Source: Escherichia coli
Lineage (GTDB): Bacteria; Pseudomonadota; Gammaproteobacteria; Enterobacterales; Enterobacteriaceae
Assembly (NCBI RefSeq): GCF_003334335.1
Contig: NZ_QOWQ01000068.1
Length of the DNA: 8,688 nt
Direction: 5' to 3' (one strand)
How positions within the stretch are numbered: the first letter of the stretch is position 1; each line of letters starts with the position of its first letter. A program made the translations under genes and the position numbers. A model generated the notes under the pieces. That model searched no databases. It had not been told where the DNA came from and worked only from the letters and a program-made list of their open reading frames with translations. Positions 1 to 8,108 of the stretch are shown piece by piece.

Positions 1-320
1 GCAAATCCGAAGGCCAGACGGGCACACTGAATCATGGCTTTATGCCGTAACATCCGTTTGGGATGCGACTGCCACGGCCCCGTAATTTCTCTGCCTTCGC
101 GGGTTTTGAATGGTTCGCGGCGGCATTCATCCATCCACTCGGTAACGCAGATCGGATGATTACCGGTTCGCTACCAGGGAAGAACGGGAAGGAAAGGTGA
201 GCACGAATCTGATTTTCAAGGAGTGTCGCCAGAGTGCCGCGATGAAGCGGGTGTTGGCATTTTATCGCGGCAATTTTCAATAGACTATGTACATAAAAAT
301 ATCATTTTTTTAATACATGT

Positions 321-512
321 CTAATTATTGGACGAAATTGGTTTTTGCTTTGGTTTAGTTAGCCTAGCAATCAAGCCAGAGGCAATAATGATGATCCAAG
401 CAATTTGATGCAATGCTACTCCAATATAAGAACCTTTATAGATAATAAAGGCATAGATCGCTAGAAACGAAATAAATATCCATAACGAAAGTTGATAAAT
501 TTTGGCGCGCAT
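321..512 (-). CDS. Small hydrophobic protein of ~63 aa with two predicted transmembrane helices and unknown function. The ORF track extends it to position 527 through a TTG; the internal ATG at 510-512 (reverse complement) is the more plausible start.
   Basis: It is the only long ORF in a strongly AT-rich region, where stop codons are frequent. The translation MRAKIYQLSLWIFISFLAIYAFIIYKGSYIGVALHQIAWIIIIASGLIARLTKPKQKPISSNN has two ~20-residue hydrophobic stretches and a basic C-terminus. I see only a weak GGA Shine-Dalgarno element. Confidence 0.45.
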   Translation of the reverse strand: MRAKIYQLSLWIFISFLAIYAFIIYKGSYIGVALHQIAWIIIIASGLIARLTKPKQKPISSNN

Positions 513-704
513 ATTTAATCCAATCAATCAGAAAGACGAGTAATCATAGAGGTACTATCACCCGGGTAACTATTGCTATTATGAACGGATAGGATAGAGG
601 CTTCAATAACATATGCATCAAGTATGATGGAATATGTAGGTGAAAATGACTTGTGTCAAATTTGTGGAAATGAGTACCATGTTTCTCTGAAATTGATGTC
701 GTTA

Positions 705-745
705 ATGGCTAGTGATAGTGAACTTTTTTACTTTATAATTCCTTT
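705..745 (+). promoter_or_regulatory. Candidate sigma70 promoter for the lipoprotein operon. It has a perfect TATAAT -10 hexamer at 734-739 and a poor -35 element.
   Basis: TATAAT lies ~30 nt upstream of the ATG at 769. It is preceded by a T-run and followed by an AAGG Shine-Dalgarno element at ~756-759. I cannot find a good -35 hexamer, so an activator or extended-element dependence is possible. Confidence 0.3.
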
Positions 746-768
746 GGTTATAACAATAAGGTAAATTT

Positions 769-1329
769 ATGAAGAAGATAATATTATTAGCCATGATTAT
801 TGGTTCTTTAACAGGTTGCGCTAGTGTGCCACCATTGAATTTTTCAACACCTAACGTGGGAGTTAGCCAGAAAAAAATAGATGCTGAAATTAAGTCATTA
901 ACGGTATCACTTGCTCGTCCAGATGAGCAGAAAGGGGATATCACTGCTGGTATGGAGGCTATAACTCCAATTTGGCGTGAATCTTTGCAGGAAGCACTCG
1001 ACCGAATGACTATTTTTCGTGATAGTTCACCAAATACGGTTAGCTTAAATGTTAAAGTGTTGGCTCTTGACGTTCCTGCTTTTGGTGTTTCAATGACAAC
1101 TAAAGCAATTGCAAGGTATGAAATAATCAACCGTGCGAATGGTGATATTATATATACGCAGGATATTGAGTCTACCGGTACTGTTCCAGCCAGTTACGCA
1201 TTCTACGGTATTGTTCGAGCACGCGAATCTGTTAATCGCGCGGTGCAAAACAACATAACGCAGTTCTTGCAAGCATTAGAAAGTGTTGATCTTTCTCGTC
1301 CAATGTTTCCTGTTAGGGTAGCTAAATGA
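769..1329 (+). CDS. Predicted lipoprotein (186 aa) of unknown function. It is the first gene of a two-gene lipoprotein operon.
   Basis: The N-terminus MKKIILLAMIIGSLTGCAS is a type II signal peptide with an LTGC lipobox. An AAGG Shine-Dalgarno element sits 8 nt upstream. The stop codon overlaps the downstream start as ATGA at 1326-1329. I do not recognise the family. Confidence 0.8.
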   Translation: MKKIILLAMIIGSLTGCASVPPLNFSTPNVGVSQKKIDAEIKSLTVSLARPDEQKGDITAGMEAITPIWRESLQEALDRMTIFRDSSPNTVSLNVKVLALDVPAFGVSMTTKAIARYEIINRANGDIIYTQDIESTGTVPASYAFYGIVRARESVNRAVQNNITQFLQALESVDLSRPMFPVRVAK

Positions 1330-1778
1330 AGCGATTATTCGTAATTGCTCCACTCTTAGTGTTGGTTGGATGCGCACAAAATATATCGCCAAATAGTTAT
1401 TCTGTTGGCTCTGTGGGCATGGTTAATCGAACTATCGCTGGTACAGTTATTAGTGCTAGGGGGGTTGATATCAGTGGGACTTCCGCGTTAGGCGGGACTG
1501 CTGGGGCTGCCGTGGGGGCAACCGCTGGTTCTGCGCTTGGTGGGGGAGTTCGTTCTAATATCGTTGGTGCCGTTGGTGGTGCAGTCATTGGTGGTATTGC
1601 CGGGGCAGCAATCGAATCTTCAGCAACAAAACAAACAGGCATGGAATATGTTGTCGAAACTGAGAATGGGAATTTAATGACCATTGTTCAAGGCAAAGAT
1701 CCGTTATTTACTCAAGGAAGTAAGGTCCTTGTTTTATACGGAAACCCTTCTCGCATAATAACAGACCCGCGTCACTAA
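1326..1778 (+). CDS. Outer-membrane lipoprotein of the SlyB/Pcp family (glycine-zipper 2TM / 17 kDa surface antigen-like), 150 aa.
   Basis: The signal peptide carries an LVGC lipobox (MKRLFVIAPLLVLVGCAQN). The central region is Gly/Ala-rich with a glycine-zipper pattern (NIVGAVGGAVIGGIAGAAI). The C-terminal part, QTGMEYVVETENGNLMTIVQGKDPLFTQGSKVLVLYGNPSRI, aligns by eye with the E. coli SlyB C-terminus QGVELEIRKDDGNTIMVVQKQGNTRFSPGQRVVLASNGSQV. Confidence 0.85.
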   Translation: MKRLFVIAPLLVLVGCAQNISPNSYSVGSVGMVNRTIAGTVISARGVDISGTSALGGTAGAAVGATAGSALGGGVRSNIVGAVGGAVIGGIAGAAIESSATKQTGMEYVVETENGNLMTIVQGKDPLFTQGSKVLVLYGNPSRIITDPRH

Positions 1779-1818
1779 CATACCTTTTGATTTTGTAAAA
1801 TCAATTCGTAATAATAAA

Positions 1819-1853
1819 GTCATCGGAGCTTGAACAACTCCGGTGACTTCTGC
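1819..1853 (+). terminator. Possible weak terminator hairpin after the lipoprotein operon.
   Basis: GTCATCGGAG-(9 nt loop)-CTCCGGTGAC forms a ~10 bp stem with one G-U wobble. It is followed by TTCTGCG, a poor U-tract. It lies at the right edge of the AT-rich island. Confidence 0.3.
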
Positions 1854-1968
1854 GCTAAACGGGGACGTTTATGCGCACATACAATCCAAACTCTCTTCTC
1901 CCTTCACAGATGCAGAAATGCACCTGCGATTTTTTGCATCCAGCGTCTGACCTCTGCGGAGGTGAAGC

Positions 1969-2424
1969 GTGAACCTACCACAAGATGGCATCAAACTGCA
2001 TCGCGGTAACTTCACCGCTATCGGCCAGCAGATCCAGCCTTATCTGGAGGACGGAAAATGCTTTCGCATGGTGCTTAAACCGTGGCGTGAGAAACGCAGT
2101 CTTTCCCAGAATGCACTCAGCCACATGTGGTACAGCGAAATCAGTGAATACCTCATCAGCAGGGGGAAATCGTTCGCTACCGCAGCATGGGTAAAAGATG
2201 CTCTCAAACACACATACCTCGGTTATGAAACCAAGGACCTGGTTGATGTCGTAACCGGCGAAATCACTACTATCCAGTCGTTACGCCATACCTCCGATCT
2301 TGATACCGGAGAGATGTATATCTTCCTGTGTAAGGTTGAAGCCTGGGCGGTGAATATTGGCTGCCACCTGACTATTCCGCAGAGCTGCGAGTTCCAGCAG
2401 CTCCGCGACAAACAGGAGGCGTAA
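1969..2424 (+). CDS. ybcN: NinB-like recombination / DNA base-flipping protein YbcN (151 aa), with a GTG start.
   Basis: The translation [21 protein letters not shown]... matches my recollection of DLP12 YbcN, including its 151 aa length. A GGAGG Shine-Dalgarno element lies at 1958-1962. The stop overlaps the ninE start as TAATG. Confidence 0.9.
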
Positions 2425-2594
2425 TGGCTACACCGCTTATTCGTGTCATGAACGGACACATCTACAGAGTACCAAATCGTCGTAAGCGTAAACCGGAGCT
2501 GAAGCCTTCCGAAATACCAACACTGCTCGGATATACCGCCAGCCTGGTTGATAAAAAATGGTTGCGACTGGCAGCAAGGAGGAGTCATGGCTGA
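2424..2594 (+). CDS. ninE: NinE family protein (56 aa). It is not in the ORF track because it is shorter than 60 aa.
   Basis: I translated the frame by hand: [56 protein letters not shown], with a TGA stop at 2592-2594. It has the conserved position between the ninB-like gene and ybcO, and its ATG overlaps the ybcN stop. Confidence 0.8.
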   Translation: MATPLIRVMNGHIYRVPNRRKRKPELKPSEIPTLLGYTASLVDKKWLRLAARRSHG

Positions 2595-2877
2595 TTTGAG
2601 AAAAGCAGCGCGTGGTCGGGAATGCCAGGTAAGAATCCCTGGCGTATGTAATGGCAACCCTGAAACGTCTGTACTGGCACATATCCGGCTGACTGGATTG
2701 TGCGGCACCGGTACGAAACCGCCAGACCTGATTGCCACCATTGCATGTTCTGCCTGCCACGACGAAATCGACCGCCGCACACATTTTGTCGATGCTGCAT
2801 ATGCAAAAGAATGCGCGCTGGAAGGTATGGCGAGAACACAGGTTATCTGGCTGAAAGAGGGGGTTATTAAGGCGTGA
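2587..2877 (+). CDS. ybcO: YbcO, a putative zinc-binding nuclease of the DUF1364 family (96 aa).
   Basis: The ATG at 2587 follows a strong AGGAGG Shine-Dalgarno element at 2577-2582. The protein [42 protein letters not shown]...CSACHDEID is Cys/His-rich and matches DLP12 YbcO. The ORF-track start at 2548 adds 13 residues with no Shine-Dalgarno element and is rejected. The stop overlaps the rusA GTG as GTGA. Confidence 0.85.
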
Positions 2878-3236
2878 ATACCTACAGCATCACATTACCC
2901 TGGCCTCCGAGCAATAATCGCTATTACCGCCATAATCGCGGGCGCACACACATCAGCGCAGAAGGGCAGGCATACCGCGATAACGTCACCCGAATCATTA
3001 AAAACGCAATGCTGGATATCGGCCTGGCTATGCCAGTGAAAATCCGTATTGAGTGCCACATGCCGGATCGCCGTCGCCGTGACCTGGATAATCTGCAAAA
3101 AGCCGCTTTTGACGCACTCACCAAAGCAGGTTTCTGGCTGGATGATGCTCAGGTCGTTGATTACCGCGTTGTGAAGATGCCTGTTACCAAAGGTGGGAGG
3201 CTGGAACTGACCATCACCGAAATGGGGAATGAATGA
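2874..3236 (+). CDS. rusA: Holliday junction resolvase RusA (120 aa), with a GTG start.
   Basis: The translation [26 protein letters not shown]...[31 protein letters not shown] is near-identical to my memory of E. coli RusA, including the catalytic Asp-rich region ([13 protein letters not shown]). Confidence 0.95.
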
Positions 3237-3373
3237 TGTTTGAGTTTAATATGGCAGAACTTCTTCGCCACCGCTGGATGCGCCTGCGCTTATATCGTTT
3301 CCCCAGTTCTGTTTTGACCGATTACCGAATACTGAGGAATTACGCCAAAACCCTGACAGGAGCAGGAGTATGA
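3233..3373 (+). CDS. ylcG: Small protein YlcG (46 aa). It is not in the ORF track.
   Basis: I translated the frame by hand: [46 protein letters not shown], with a TGA stop at 3371-3373. It matches the DLP12 ylcG small protein. Its ATG overlaps the rusA stop as ATGA. Confidence 0.7.
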
Positions 3374-4030: not shown

Positions 4031-5113
4031 TTAGAACTGGTAAACCATACCTACAGCAACGATATCATCGGTAGCAACGCCAGATGCTTTCGTGAAATCG
4101 CTCTTATCAATCAGGTTGATTTTGTAATCAACAAAAGTGGACATATTTTTGTTGAAGTAATAGGTTGCACCTACATCAATATATTCAACCAGGTCCTGAT
4201 CACCCCACGCACCCAAGTCTTTTCCTTTAGATTGCAGGTAAGCAACGGACGGACGCAGACCGAAGTCGAACTGATATTGTGCAACTACTTCGAAGTTTTG
4301 TGCTTTGTTGGCAATATGGTTATTACCAAAAACAGTCATGTTCTGGGTTTCAGAATAGGTGGTAGCCAGATAGATGTTGTTCGCATCATATTTCAGACCA
4401 GCTGCCCATACTTCAGCATTTTGACCAGATGCATTCAGGCTGTTGTTACCGTAGATAACCTGATTATTAGTGCGGTCAGATTTAGCATAGGTTGCACCTA
4501 CACCGAATCCTTCATACTCATAAGTAGTGGAGAAACCGAAACCATCACCATTAGCTTCAGTTACGTCAGTGCGGTCATTTTTACCCTGATACTGAGCAGC
4601 AAAGTTCAGACCATCAACCAGACCAAAGAAGTCATTGTTACGATAAGTTGCAACACCTGTGGTGCGACCAGTCATGAATACATCTGTTTGGGTCCAGGTA
4701 TCGCCACCGAATTCTGGCAGAACGTCGGTCCATGCACCAATATCGTATGCTACACCGTAGTTACGGCCATAATCGATGGAGCCGTAGTCACCGAATTTCA
4801 GGCCAGCGAAGGCAAGACGGGTTTTATCTTTGGAGGAACCTTGAGATTCAGCGCGGTTGCCTTTGAATTCATATTCCCACTGACCGAAACCAGTCAGTTG
4901 ATCGTTGATTTGGGTTTCACCTTTGAAGCCAAGACGGGCATAAGTAGTATCACCATCATCTGCATCATTAGAGGAGAAGTAGTGCTTAGCATTAACTTTC
5001 CCGTACAGATCCAGCTTGTTACTGTCTTTATTATAAATTTCAGCTGCCTGAGCAGACATCGCCATCAGTACTGATGCAGCTACAGCAGAAATTGCCACTG
5101 TTAATTTTTTCAT
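4031..5113 (-). CDS. nmpC: Outer membrane porin of the NmpC / Lc / OmpD type, from the OmpC family (361 aa precursor). It is intact here.
   Basis: The signal peptide is [23 protein letters not shown] followed by [16 protein letters not shown].... The protein ends in the aromatic C-terminal residue of a beta-barrel (...VGMVYQF). It aligns with my memory of DLP12 NmpC. The ORF-track start at 5173 adds 20 non-signal residues and is rejected; the ATG at 5111-5113 (reverse complement) follows an AAAGGG Shine-Dalgarno element. Confidence 0.95.
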
Positions 5114-5539
5114 CGTGAGCCCTTTTTTTGAACTATTATTAAAAAATGATGTCACTGCGCGATAAATATTCATCTAATCAATGTGATTATTTCAAGATGT
5201 AAGTTTTGGTTTCTCATTTGATTTGTGAAGTAGATCTCTATTTTTATCTGAACTTTTTCTATCGAATCCTATTCATGGCTCTTGGCTGAATAAAAATAAA
5301 TCTATTAGCCAATTTATATTAATGGCTGTTATTTATAAGTGCTCTATAATTTGAAGATTCAATTTAAACCAGCTAAAAATAACGCTGGAAATTATTTGTT
5401 GGTTATTTGTTGAGATTTGCTTATGTATTTGTAGTGGTGTTTTCAATACTCGGTAGCATTCTCGCAAATATCATTTAGTGGTTTACGTACGTAAAAAATT
5501 GGTTATGCTGTTAAGAGTGGTTACTTCGTCACACAGCTT

Positions 5540-7486: not shown

Positions 7487-7897
7487 TTAGCGTGGAAAGA
7501 TTTGTGTAGTGTTCTGAATGCTCTCAGTAAATAGTAATGAATTATCAAAGGTATAGTAATATCTTTTATGTTCATGGATATTTGTAACCCATCGGAAAAC
7601 TCCTGCTTTAGCAAGATTTTCCCTGTATTGCTGAAATGTGATTTCTCTTGATTTCAACCTATCATAGGACGTTTCTATAAGATGCGTGTTTCTTGAGAAT
7701 TTAACATTTACAACCTTTTTAAGTCCTTTTATTAACACGGTGTTATCGTTTTCTAACACGATGTGAATATTATCTGTGGCTAGATAGTAAATATAATGTG
7801 AGACGTTGTGACGTTTTAGTTCAGAATAAAACAATTCACAGTTTAAATCTTTTCGCACTTGATCGAATATTTCTTTAAAAATGGCAACCTGAGCCAT
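7487..7897 (-). CDS. ybcV: DUF1398-family protein YbcV (136 aa from the Met preceded by a GGAAGG Shine-Dalgarno element). The ORF track extends it to 177 aa through a GTG start with no Shine-Dalgarno element.
   Basis: The translation [51 protein letters not shown]... matches DLP12 YbcV. The ATG at 7895-7897 (reverse complement) has a GGAAGG element 8 nt upstream. The alternative Met at 7937-7939 (150 aa) lacks a Shine-Dalgarno element. Confidence 0.8.
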
Positions 7898-8108
7898 TGG
7901 TAAAACCTTCCATGTGATACGAGGGCGCGTAGTTTGCATTATCGTTTTTATCGTTTCAATCTGGTCTGACCTCTTTGTGTTTTGTTGATGATTTATGTCA
8001 AATATTAGGAATGTTTTCACTTAATAGTATTGGTTGCGTAACAAAGTGCGGTCCTGCTGGCATTCTGGAGGGAAATACAACCGACAGATGTATGTAAGGC
8101 CAACGTGC

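Follow-up and report, generated by a model that had tools for sequence, protein, structure and literature searches.

The window analysed here is an 8,688-nt stretch of Escherichia coli DNA (contig NZ_QOWQ01000068.1) that carries part of a defective lambda-like prophage. At 259–1781 it holds a variable cargo cassette of three genes, here called A, B and C. The cassette is a moron-type accessory insertion in the swap-site between ren and ylcH-ninB and is ordinary as a feature of the genome. Its contents are less familiar: B is a relative of the outer-membrane lipoprotein SlyB, A is a lipoprotein with an LptE-type fold, and the pairing of the two is strongly conserved and uncharacterised, with no published study of the A-B module found in the literature searched. 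A and B form an autonomous two-gene module that travels horizontally through the Proteobacteria. On balance, and by a modest degree, we favour the reading that the cassette was gained by recombination as a moron and that a complex of A and B in the outer membrane remodels or stabilises the envelope of the lysogen.

A cargo cassette in a variable prophage slot

The edges of the cassette were set by alignment. On the left, homology to other ren genes (the 3′ ends from K-12 and PhiR5_1 were aligned) stopped at about 258, within the final codons of ren, whose stop codon lies at 281–283. On the right, homology restarted at about 1782 with K-12 DLP12, phage 82, Lambda_4C10, PhiR5_1 and HK639, and this edge falls four bases past the stop codon of B (1776–1778). 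The cassette spans about 259–1781 and not 285–1860, the limits given in the original prediction, which came close on the left and overshot by about 80 nt on the right. Matches to 285–1860 were found in 2483 E. coli genomes, and all except 280 of these matched only over the final ~76 bases. The sharp switch to AT-rich DNA that had been predicted was visible in the GC profile, with 55.4% GC at 1–258, 39.7% within the cassette and 50.6% at 1782–3300. Composition within the cassette was uneven: 33% GC in gene C and the intergenic region, 40.5% in A and 47% in B, where a stretch of glycine codons (1400–1700) reached 50–56%. A 12-nt inverted repeat (TGCCGCGATGAA / TTTATCGCGGCA, 92% complementary, 235–272) spans the point at about 258 where ren homology ends and may be due to chance.

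Among the elements compared, the slot between ren and ylcH-ninB held at least five different cargo sets. K-12 DLP12 and phage PhiR34_1 carry emrE-ylcJ-ybcK-ybcL-ybcM, Lambda_4C10 carries emrE, a ybcK-like gene and an alpha/beta hydrolase gene, HK639 carries eae-like genes and a theta-subunit homologue, and PhiR5_1 carries Rha and several small genes. The window and the intact phage PhiR30_1 share the present cassette, which is 100% identical in the two. The three genes are thus extra genes between backbone genes, at a place that is differently filled in relatives, and their composition is unlike that of the backbone, as is the case for morons. An accessory insertion at a variable lambdoid junction, absent from K-12 DLP12, had been predicted and was borne out by this comparison, since K-12 has other cargo there. 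The junction itself was misnamed: it lies between ren and ylcH rather than between ybcM and ybcN, the ybcM gene of K-12 is itself part of an alternative cargo, and the next gene downstream is ylcH (1871–1972) and not ybcN.

Copies of the cassette with at least 99% identity were present in 280 of 5426 complete E. coli genomes, compared to 3827 genomes that matched some part of window positions 1–2500 (backbone plus cassette), so the cassette is not a core feature, as predicted. Its left flanks differed between strains and included intact O/P/ren with differing immunity regions, an exo|ren junction and a recT|ren junction, and the strains that carry it had different modules after Q. No mobility gene was found among the open reading frames (ORFs) of the cassette, and a repeat search revealed no flanking repeats, target-site duplication or terminal inverted repeats. 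Acquisition by transposition was rejected because the latter two were missing. The several left flanks and the lack of mobility genes and flanking repeats instead fit an exchange through homology in the flanking backbone, which would be the simplest route of acquisition and agrees with what had been proposed. In one genome an IS3 element was inserted within the cassette.

The A-B module in Proteobacteria

Genes A (769–1329, plus strand) and B (1326–1778, plus strand) make up the two-gene lipoprotein operon that had been predicted. The ATG of B overlaps the TGA of A as ATGA (1326–1329), an arrangement for translational coupling. Homologues of the pair, with 55–85% identity, were found in Klebsiella oxytoca, Serratia, Edaphovirga, Stenotrophomonas, Xanthomonas, Luteimonas, Bordetella, Comamonas, Massilia and some Alphaproteobacteria. 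B directly followed A in about 50 of 55 species loci, and across these 55 loci there was no third conserved neighbour. The contexts were ordinary variable chromosomal regions with toxin-antitoxin genes, transposases, umuDC and type VI secretion system effectors. No plasmid with A-B was found, as a tblastn search with A gave just remote partial matches of 26–28% identity, and the context of the match on a Vibrio plasmid had no glycine-zipper partner annotated.

The distance matrices of A and B were correlated (r = 0.88, Mantel p = 0.001). The nonsynonymous divergence (dN) of the pair was 0.11–0.29 and the synonymous divergence (dS) was saturated; by this comparison of codons, A-B is under strong purifying selection across genera. 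In many hosts the GC content of A-B was well under that of its flanks, for example 0.47 compared to 0.68, and the enterobacterial copies were not consistently nearer to the E. coli genes than the betaproteobacterial ones. The low GC content and the distances that do not follow taxonomy indicate that the two genes have spread horizontally.

B is a glycine-zipper lipoprotein of the SlyB family

B encodes a 150-aa lipoprotein with the lipobox LVGC, whose cysteine (Cys16) was invariant in 20 of 20 relatives and was never followed by Asp at +2. A phmmer comparison with SlyB, an outer-membrane lipoprotein of E. coli/Salmonella (PDB 7OJF/7OJG), gave E = 1.3e-14 and aligned residues 2–149 of B with residues 3–155 of 7OJF. 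The AlphaFold2 (AF2) model showed a strand, a helical hairpin and then strands, and a Foldseek search with this model returned 7OJF as the top match (E = 9.3e-9, probability 1.00, 28% identity in the fold alignment); after SlyB, it matched TraT weakly. The glycines of the zipper recur every four residues, with G56, G60, G64, G68 and G72, G81 and G85, and G93 all invariant and G89 nearly so. Judged by its sequence, B is a full-length SlyB homologue in which the lipid anchor, the homology and the fold all agree. Its scores against the Pfam models were below threshold (21.1 bits for PF05433, with a cut-off of 24.2, and PF13488 likewise), and it matched phrog_13877. Members of the B subfamily were 65–77% identical to the B of the window across classes.

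The glycine-rich part of B also yields an antisense shadow ORF of 93–95 aa, found at 1397–1684 on the minus strand of the window and at many other loci (e.g. locus L007, 6657–6938). Gene callers sometimes annotate this shadow ORF and not B (Luteimonas abyssi is an example), and the A-B pairing can then be masked.

A is a lipoprotein with an LptE-type fold

A encodes a 186-aa lipoprotein with the lipobox LTGC and the lipidated cysteine at position 17. The lipobox was kept in 24 of 24 family members, and Asp was never found at +2. The AF2 model of A, with a predicted local distance difference test score (pLDDT) of 82, has an alpha/beta fold of the LptE/PqiC/PelC type, in which two helices lie on an antiparallel sheet that is lipid-anchored, and the fold comparison gave matches to LptE and TraT. 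Sequence identity to lipoproteins of the LptE/PqiC/PelC/CsgG type was only 7–15%. A and its 23 relatives (24 of 24) had no relevant Pfam hit, including none to DUF330 or LptE, and no NCBIfam membership, and a profile of A found nothing among the PDB sequences. A search of the viral folds in BFVD gave weak CsgG-like and Erf/Rad52-like matches with low template-modelling scores, which we judged to be uninformative.

Two names are in use for A. RefSeq calls it a 'YajG family lipoprotein', and this assignment was unsupported. Against the YajG model (NF008637/PRK11627) A scored 11.4 bits, far under the cut-off of 242, and an hhalign alignment with YajG (77% probability) covered the signal peptide and roughly the first 55 residues of A but nothing beyond residue 55. 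The name 'UDP-N-acetylglucosamine acyltransferase' is given to A widely, in NCBI, in UniRef and in the PhiR30_1 record. Such an enzyme is a cytoplasmic hexapeptide beta-helix; A had no hexapeptide or LpxA match, is exported as a lipoprotein and has an alpha/beta fold. The acyltransferase name is a propagated misannotation.

A proposed function in the lysogen envelope and its alternatives

Under the Lol sorting rule a lipoprotein without Asp at +2 goes to the outer membrane. Every member of both families had a lipobox and none had Asp at +2, so A and B are predicted to be outer-membrane lipoproteins. Known lipoproteins with the fold of A (PelC, PqiC, CsgG, LptE, TraT) typically assemble into rings or plugs on the inner face of the outer membrane. 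SlyB arranges its glycine-zipper hairpins into outer-membrane rings, which under stress surround patches of lipid as well as outer-membrane proteins, and the related YfgH is another stabiliser (bioRxiv 10.64898/2025.12.22.696046). We propose that one translationally coupled message yields both A and B, that the two proteins are sorted to the outer membrane and that they assemble there into a complex. Like the chromosomal SlyB, this complex would stabilise or shield outer-membrane domains under stress and so alter the envelope of the lysogen, and the host would gain fitness through lysogenic conversion, beside the porin gene and bor, which this prophage also carries. Thus, we infer an outer-membrane location, a complex, expression in the lysogen and a physiological effect, and we regard the whole, including acquisition as a moron, as somewhat probable.

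Several observations weigh against this proposal. SlyB works alone, which leaves a requirement for a partner unexplained, and A was found without B in a few species (Photorhabdus, Massilia horti), so A may act without B. The AF2 model of B was of moderate confidence (pLDDT 65). The A-B pair occurred in only 1 of 50,697 phage records, so it is not a typical phage function and a benefit to the phage is unproven. Finally, E. coli often uses H-NS to silence foreign DNA that is rich in AT, and the promoter-like sites upstream of A and C were no more frequent than expected by chance, with six observed compared to 5.3 ± 2.5 in shuffled sequences.

The main rival is receptor masking, that is, superinfection or surface exclusion, in which the A-B complex would surround an outer-membrane receptor for phages, colicins or conjugation. 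This would shield the lysogen and save progeny phage from wasted adsorption. Cor and Llp mask FhuA in this way, and TraT acts likewise in conjugation. The structural evidence is compatible with such a role, as outer-membrane proteins are enclosed by SlyB rings (BamA in the SlyB13-BamA complex 7OJF), A matches LptE and TraT, and B matches SlyB and then, weakly, TraT. TraT itself is a decamer of chains that each have an LptE-like core and two outer-membrane helices (PMC12658005), and exclusion by means of prophage-encoded lipoproteins is a classic strategy (Cor in PHROGs; Llp, bioRxiv 10.64898/2026.03.26.714494). What speaks against receptor masking is that A-B is overwhelmingly chromosomal and non-phage across the Proteobacteria, with a single sequenced phage among its carriers, that neither protein is related in sequence to Cor, Llp or TraT, and that there was no match in PADLOC; we consider it possible but rather improbable. 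By analogy, A and B could further be pictured as a hitherto unrecognised two-component outer-membrane ring, a split counterpart of TraT in which a SlyB-like hairpin ring of B is capped or lined by the LptE-fold A and with which mobile elements and chromosomal islands throughout the Proteobacteria would cage a specific outer-membrane receptor. This would be a new type of exclusion in a prophage, and we hold it to be a speculative and improbable idea. An accessory role in lipid transport or envelope biogenesis, with A docking to a transporter or barrel like PqiC or LptE and B serving as a scaffold, was judged unlikely; no MCE/PqiAB, LptD or ABC transporter gene was conserved nearby in the 55 loci, and the identity of A to PqiC/LptE-type proteins was 7–11%, with no hit to Pfam DUF330 or LptE.

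The remaining alternatives concern the cassette as a whole. It could be inert, hitch-hiking DNA, a silent remnant that persists with a cryptic prophage: it is AT-rich, lies in a defective prophage and has an unproven promoter, its copies in E. coli share at least 99% identity and hence give no signal of selection within the species, and one of them is interrupted by IS3. The purifying selection across genera makes this very unlikely, and the ORFs are intact in the 280 genomes and in an inducible phage, with the lipoboxes and the glycine zipper conserved. Cargo slots of prophages often hold defence genes, and C, as a small membrane protein, could in principle be a toxic effector. Nevertheless, we give hardly any credence to intracellular anti-phage defence by abortive infection or a toxin-antitoxin system, because none of A, B, C and YlcH had a hit in PADLOC-DB v2 at E ≤ 1 and because A and B are exported lipoproteins without an enzymatic or nucleic-acid-binding domain; in addition, C is unlinked to A-B outside E. 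coli. The suggestion of a defence island in the original prediction gained no support from the PADLOC check. A role in lysis or as a spanin was rejected, since the lysis genes lie a long way from the cassette and A-B is mostly non-phage.

Gene C encodes a small membrane protein

Gene C (321–512, minus strand) is transcribed divergently from A and B, and the predicted ORF for a 63-aa protein with two membrane segments was confirmed. The protein has two hydrophobic helices, with hydropathy peaks at residues 10–24 and 30–51, and a basic C-terminal tail; from its sequence it is probably an inner-membrane hairpin. No family match was found in Pfam, NCBIfam, PADLOC or PHROGs, and scans with YlcH likewise gave no family in the first three. 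When 1.8 billion representatives were searched exhaustively with HMMER, just three related clusters emerged, equal in size to C and 33–48% identical. The alignment of the four sequences had 11 invariant columns, including Y20, Y29, G31, V32, L34, H35 and W39. C always accompanied A-B in E. coli and was absent from the A-B loci of other genera. The few relatives of the same size, with their invariant columns, showed that C is rare but genuine, a small membrane protein that is specific to the cassette in E. coli.

Promoter-like sites and a conserved backbone hairpin

The divergent intergenic region (528–768, 33% GC) has promoter-like sites on both strands. On the plus strand, GTGATA-16-TATAAT at 712–739 has 10 of 12 consensus matches. 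On the minus strand, TTGACA-17-CATATT at 659–631 and a second site at 606–578 could serve gene C. The TATAAT at 734–739 is present, as had been noted in support of a promoter belonging to the cassette, but as a promoter call it was no better than chance, given a count of sites equal to that in shuffled sequences. The DNA upstream of A could not be aligned with that of Klebsiella, Serratia or Edaphovirga, and no conserved regulatory motif was found in this comparison. A half site resembling a PhoP box (TGTTTC, 680–685), picked out by eye, was dropped as too distant from the -10 hexamer. No terminator was found within the cassette, and an Rfam scan of 1–2100 gave nothing at E ≤ 1.

Directly after the cassette lies a conserved backbone element (1782–1860, plus strand). 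It comprises a palindrome at 1785–1804 (TTGATTTT..AAAATCAA), a promoter-like TTGATT-17-AATAAT at 1787–1815 and a hairpin at 1818–1848. The element is kept in K-12 DLP12, phage 82, Lambda_4C10, PhiR5_1 and HK639, behind differing cassettes, and in the phage 82 record (X92588) it is labelled as a putative -35/-10 with a 'possible regulator-binding site'. The hairpin has an 11-bp stem without a U-tract, and the surrounding 95 nt fold with z = -3.2. A hairpin here had thus been predicted correctly, but it is not the terminator of the cassette or a part of it, because it lies in the conserved backbone, accompanies every alternative cargo and lacks a U-tract. Differences between phages in the left arm of the hairpin were mostly C↔T and kept G·U pairs in the plus-strand RNA, which hints that this backbone hairpin may be a structure at the RNA level. 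PhiR5_1 has one T→C change that breaks a pair, at the second stem position.

A defective lambda-like prophage

The first 2500 bases of the window were 100% identical to a segment of an E. coli lambda-like prophage. The RefSeq annotation of an identical copy, NZ_CP104384, gives, in order, ybhC, the integrase and excisionase genes, fragments of recT and ren fused to each other, the two lipoprotein genes and ylcH, followed by ybcN (ninB), ninE, ybcO, rusA, ylcG, quuD, a porin gene, essD, rrrD, rzpD, bor and ybcV. In the window, the 3′ fragment of recT (1–161, minus strand; annotated as 'recombinase RecT, incomplete', with locus position 9161 of NZ_CP104384 corresponding to window position 161) is the left backbone and ends at a deletion scar. 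The 3′ fragment of ren (161–283, plus strand; annotated as 'protein ren, incomplete') begins at the same position, and its final ~8 codons (about 259–283) are specific to the cassette. At this scar, where the two fragments meet at 161, the entire immunity and replication region has been removed. On the right, the first backbone gene is ylcH (orf33; plus strand, by annotation and ORFs), which overlaps the start of ybcN/ninB at 1969.

Where other genomes match the first 2500 bases of the window exactly, the integrase gene of the prophage adjoins ybhC, which is not the DLP12 site. We take the neighbourhood of ybhC to be the lambda attachment region, with DLP12 integrated at argU. The position next to ybhC and the fusion of the recT and ren fragments show that the element is a defective lambda-like prophage and not DLP12 itself, with which the original prediction had compared it. 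Its nin-Q-lysis backbone is DLP12-like, and the cargo of the slot differs from that of K-12 (emrE-ybcM).

Further features were observed in the right-hand part of the window. An ORF for an nmpC/ompD-like porin (4031–5173, minus strand) is unbroken in the window; its counterpart in strain JNQH498 is annotated as a pseudogene with an internal stop, and in the K-12 region an IS5 transposase gene lies beside the porin gene. Upstream of the porin ORF, at 5100–5500, is a stretch of 27–28% GC. In some cassette-carrying E. coli prophages (loci L071 and L076, positions 1–521) a lipocalin gene (PF08212) replaces the porin gene after Q, so there is a second swap-site downstream of Q. A ybcV-like ORF (7487–8020, minus strand) encodes 177 aa when read from a GTG; RefSeq gives 136 aa (411 nt) for the identical region, and the PhiR30_1 annotation uses the long form.

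Comparison with known systems

As a prophage insertion, the cassette resembles the lambdoid morons bor, lom and the emrE-ybcM genes of DLP12. It lies between backbone genes, deviates in composition, is present in a minority of prophages and encodes envelope proteins, and K-12 fills the identical slot with other cargo. It differs from them in that no terminator of its own was found, its promoter is unproven and A-B is mostly non-phage elsewhere.

A shares with YajG that both are lipoproteins of ~190 aa. In contrast to LptE, PqiC (DUF330, 2IQI), PelC and CsgG, it has no sequence membership in these families and no partner genes of their systems nearby. The present results correct two misleading names of A, 'UDP-N-acetylglucosamine acyltransferase' and the unsupported 'YajG family'.

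TraT offers an analogy to the pair as a whole, as it carries on one chain an LptE-like core and two helices, the same elements that would be split over A and B. Both A-B and TraT are found on mobile elements and also on chromosomes (PMC11733297). The cassette encodes no single chain with core and helices, and neither protein is a sequence homologue of TraT.

The closest relation is that of B to SlyB. B has the lipobox, the short beta segment, the helical hairpin with a GxxxG glycine zipper and the C-terminal beta domain of SlyB. Whereas slyB is a single gene under PhoP control, B is nearly always encoded right behind its partner A, and it forms a distinct and more tightly conserved subfamily, an accessory one that has spread horizontally and is not part of the core genome. 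That glycine-zipper lipoproteins such as SlyB and YfgH build protective nanodomains in the outer membrane has been recognised only recently. Here, a strongly conserved SlyB relative is coupled almost always to a dedicated LptE-fold partner and moves horizontally, in this case on a lambda-like phage. If A and B cooperate, rings of the SlyB type could take accessory subunits, and phages could supply their hosts with a ready-made device for hardening the envelope or shielding receptors.

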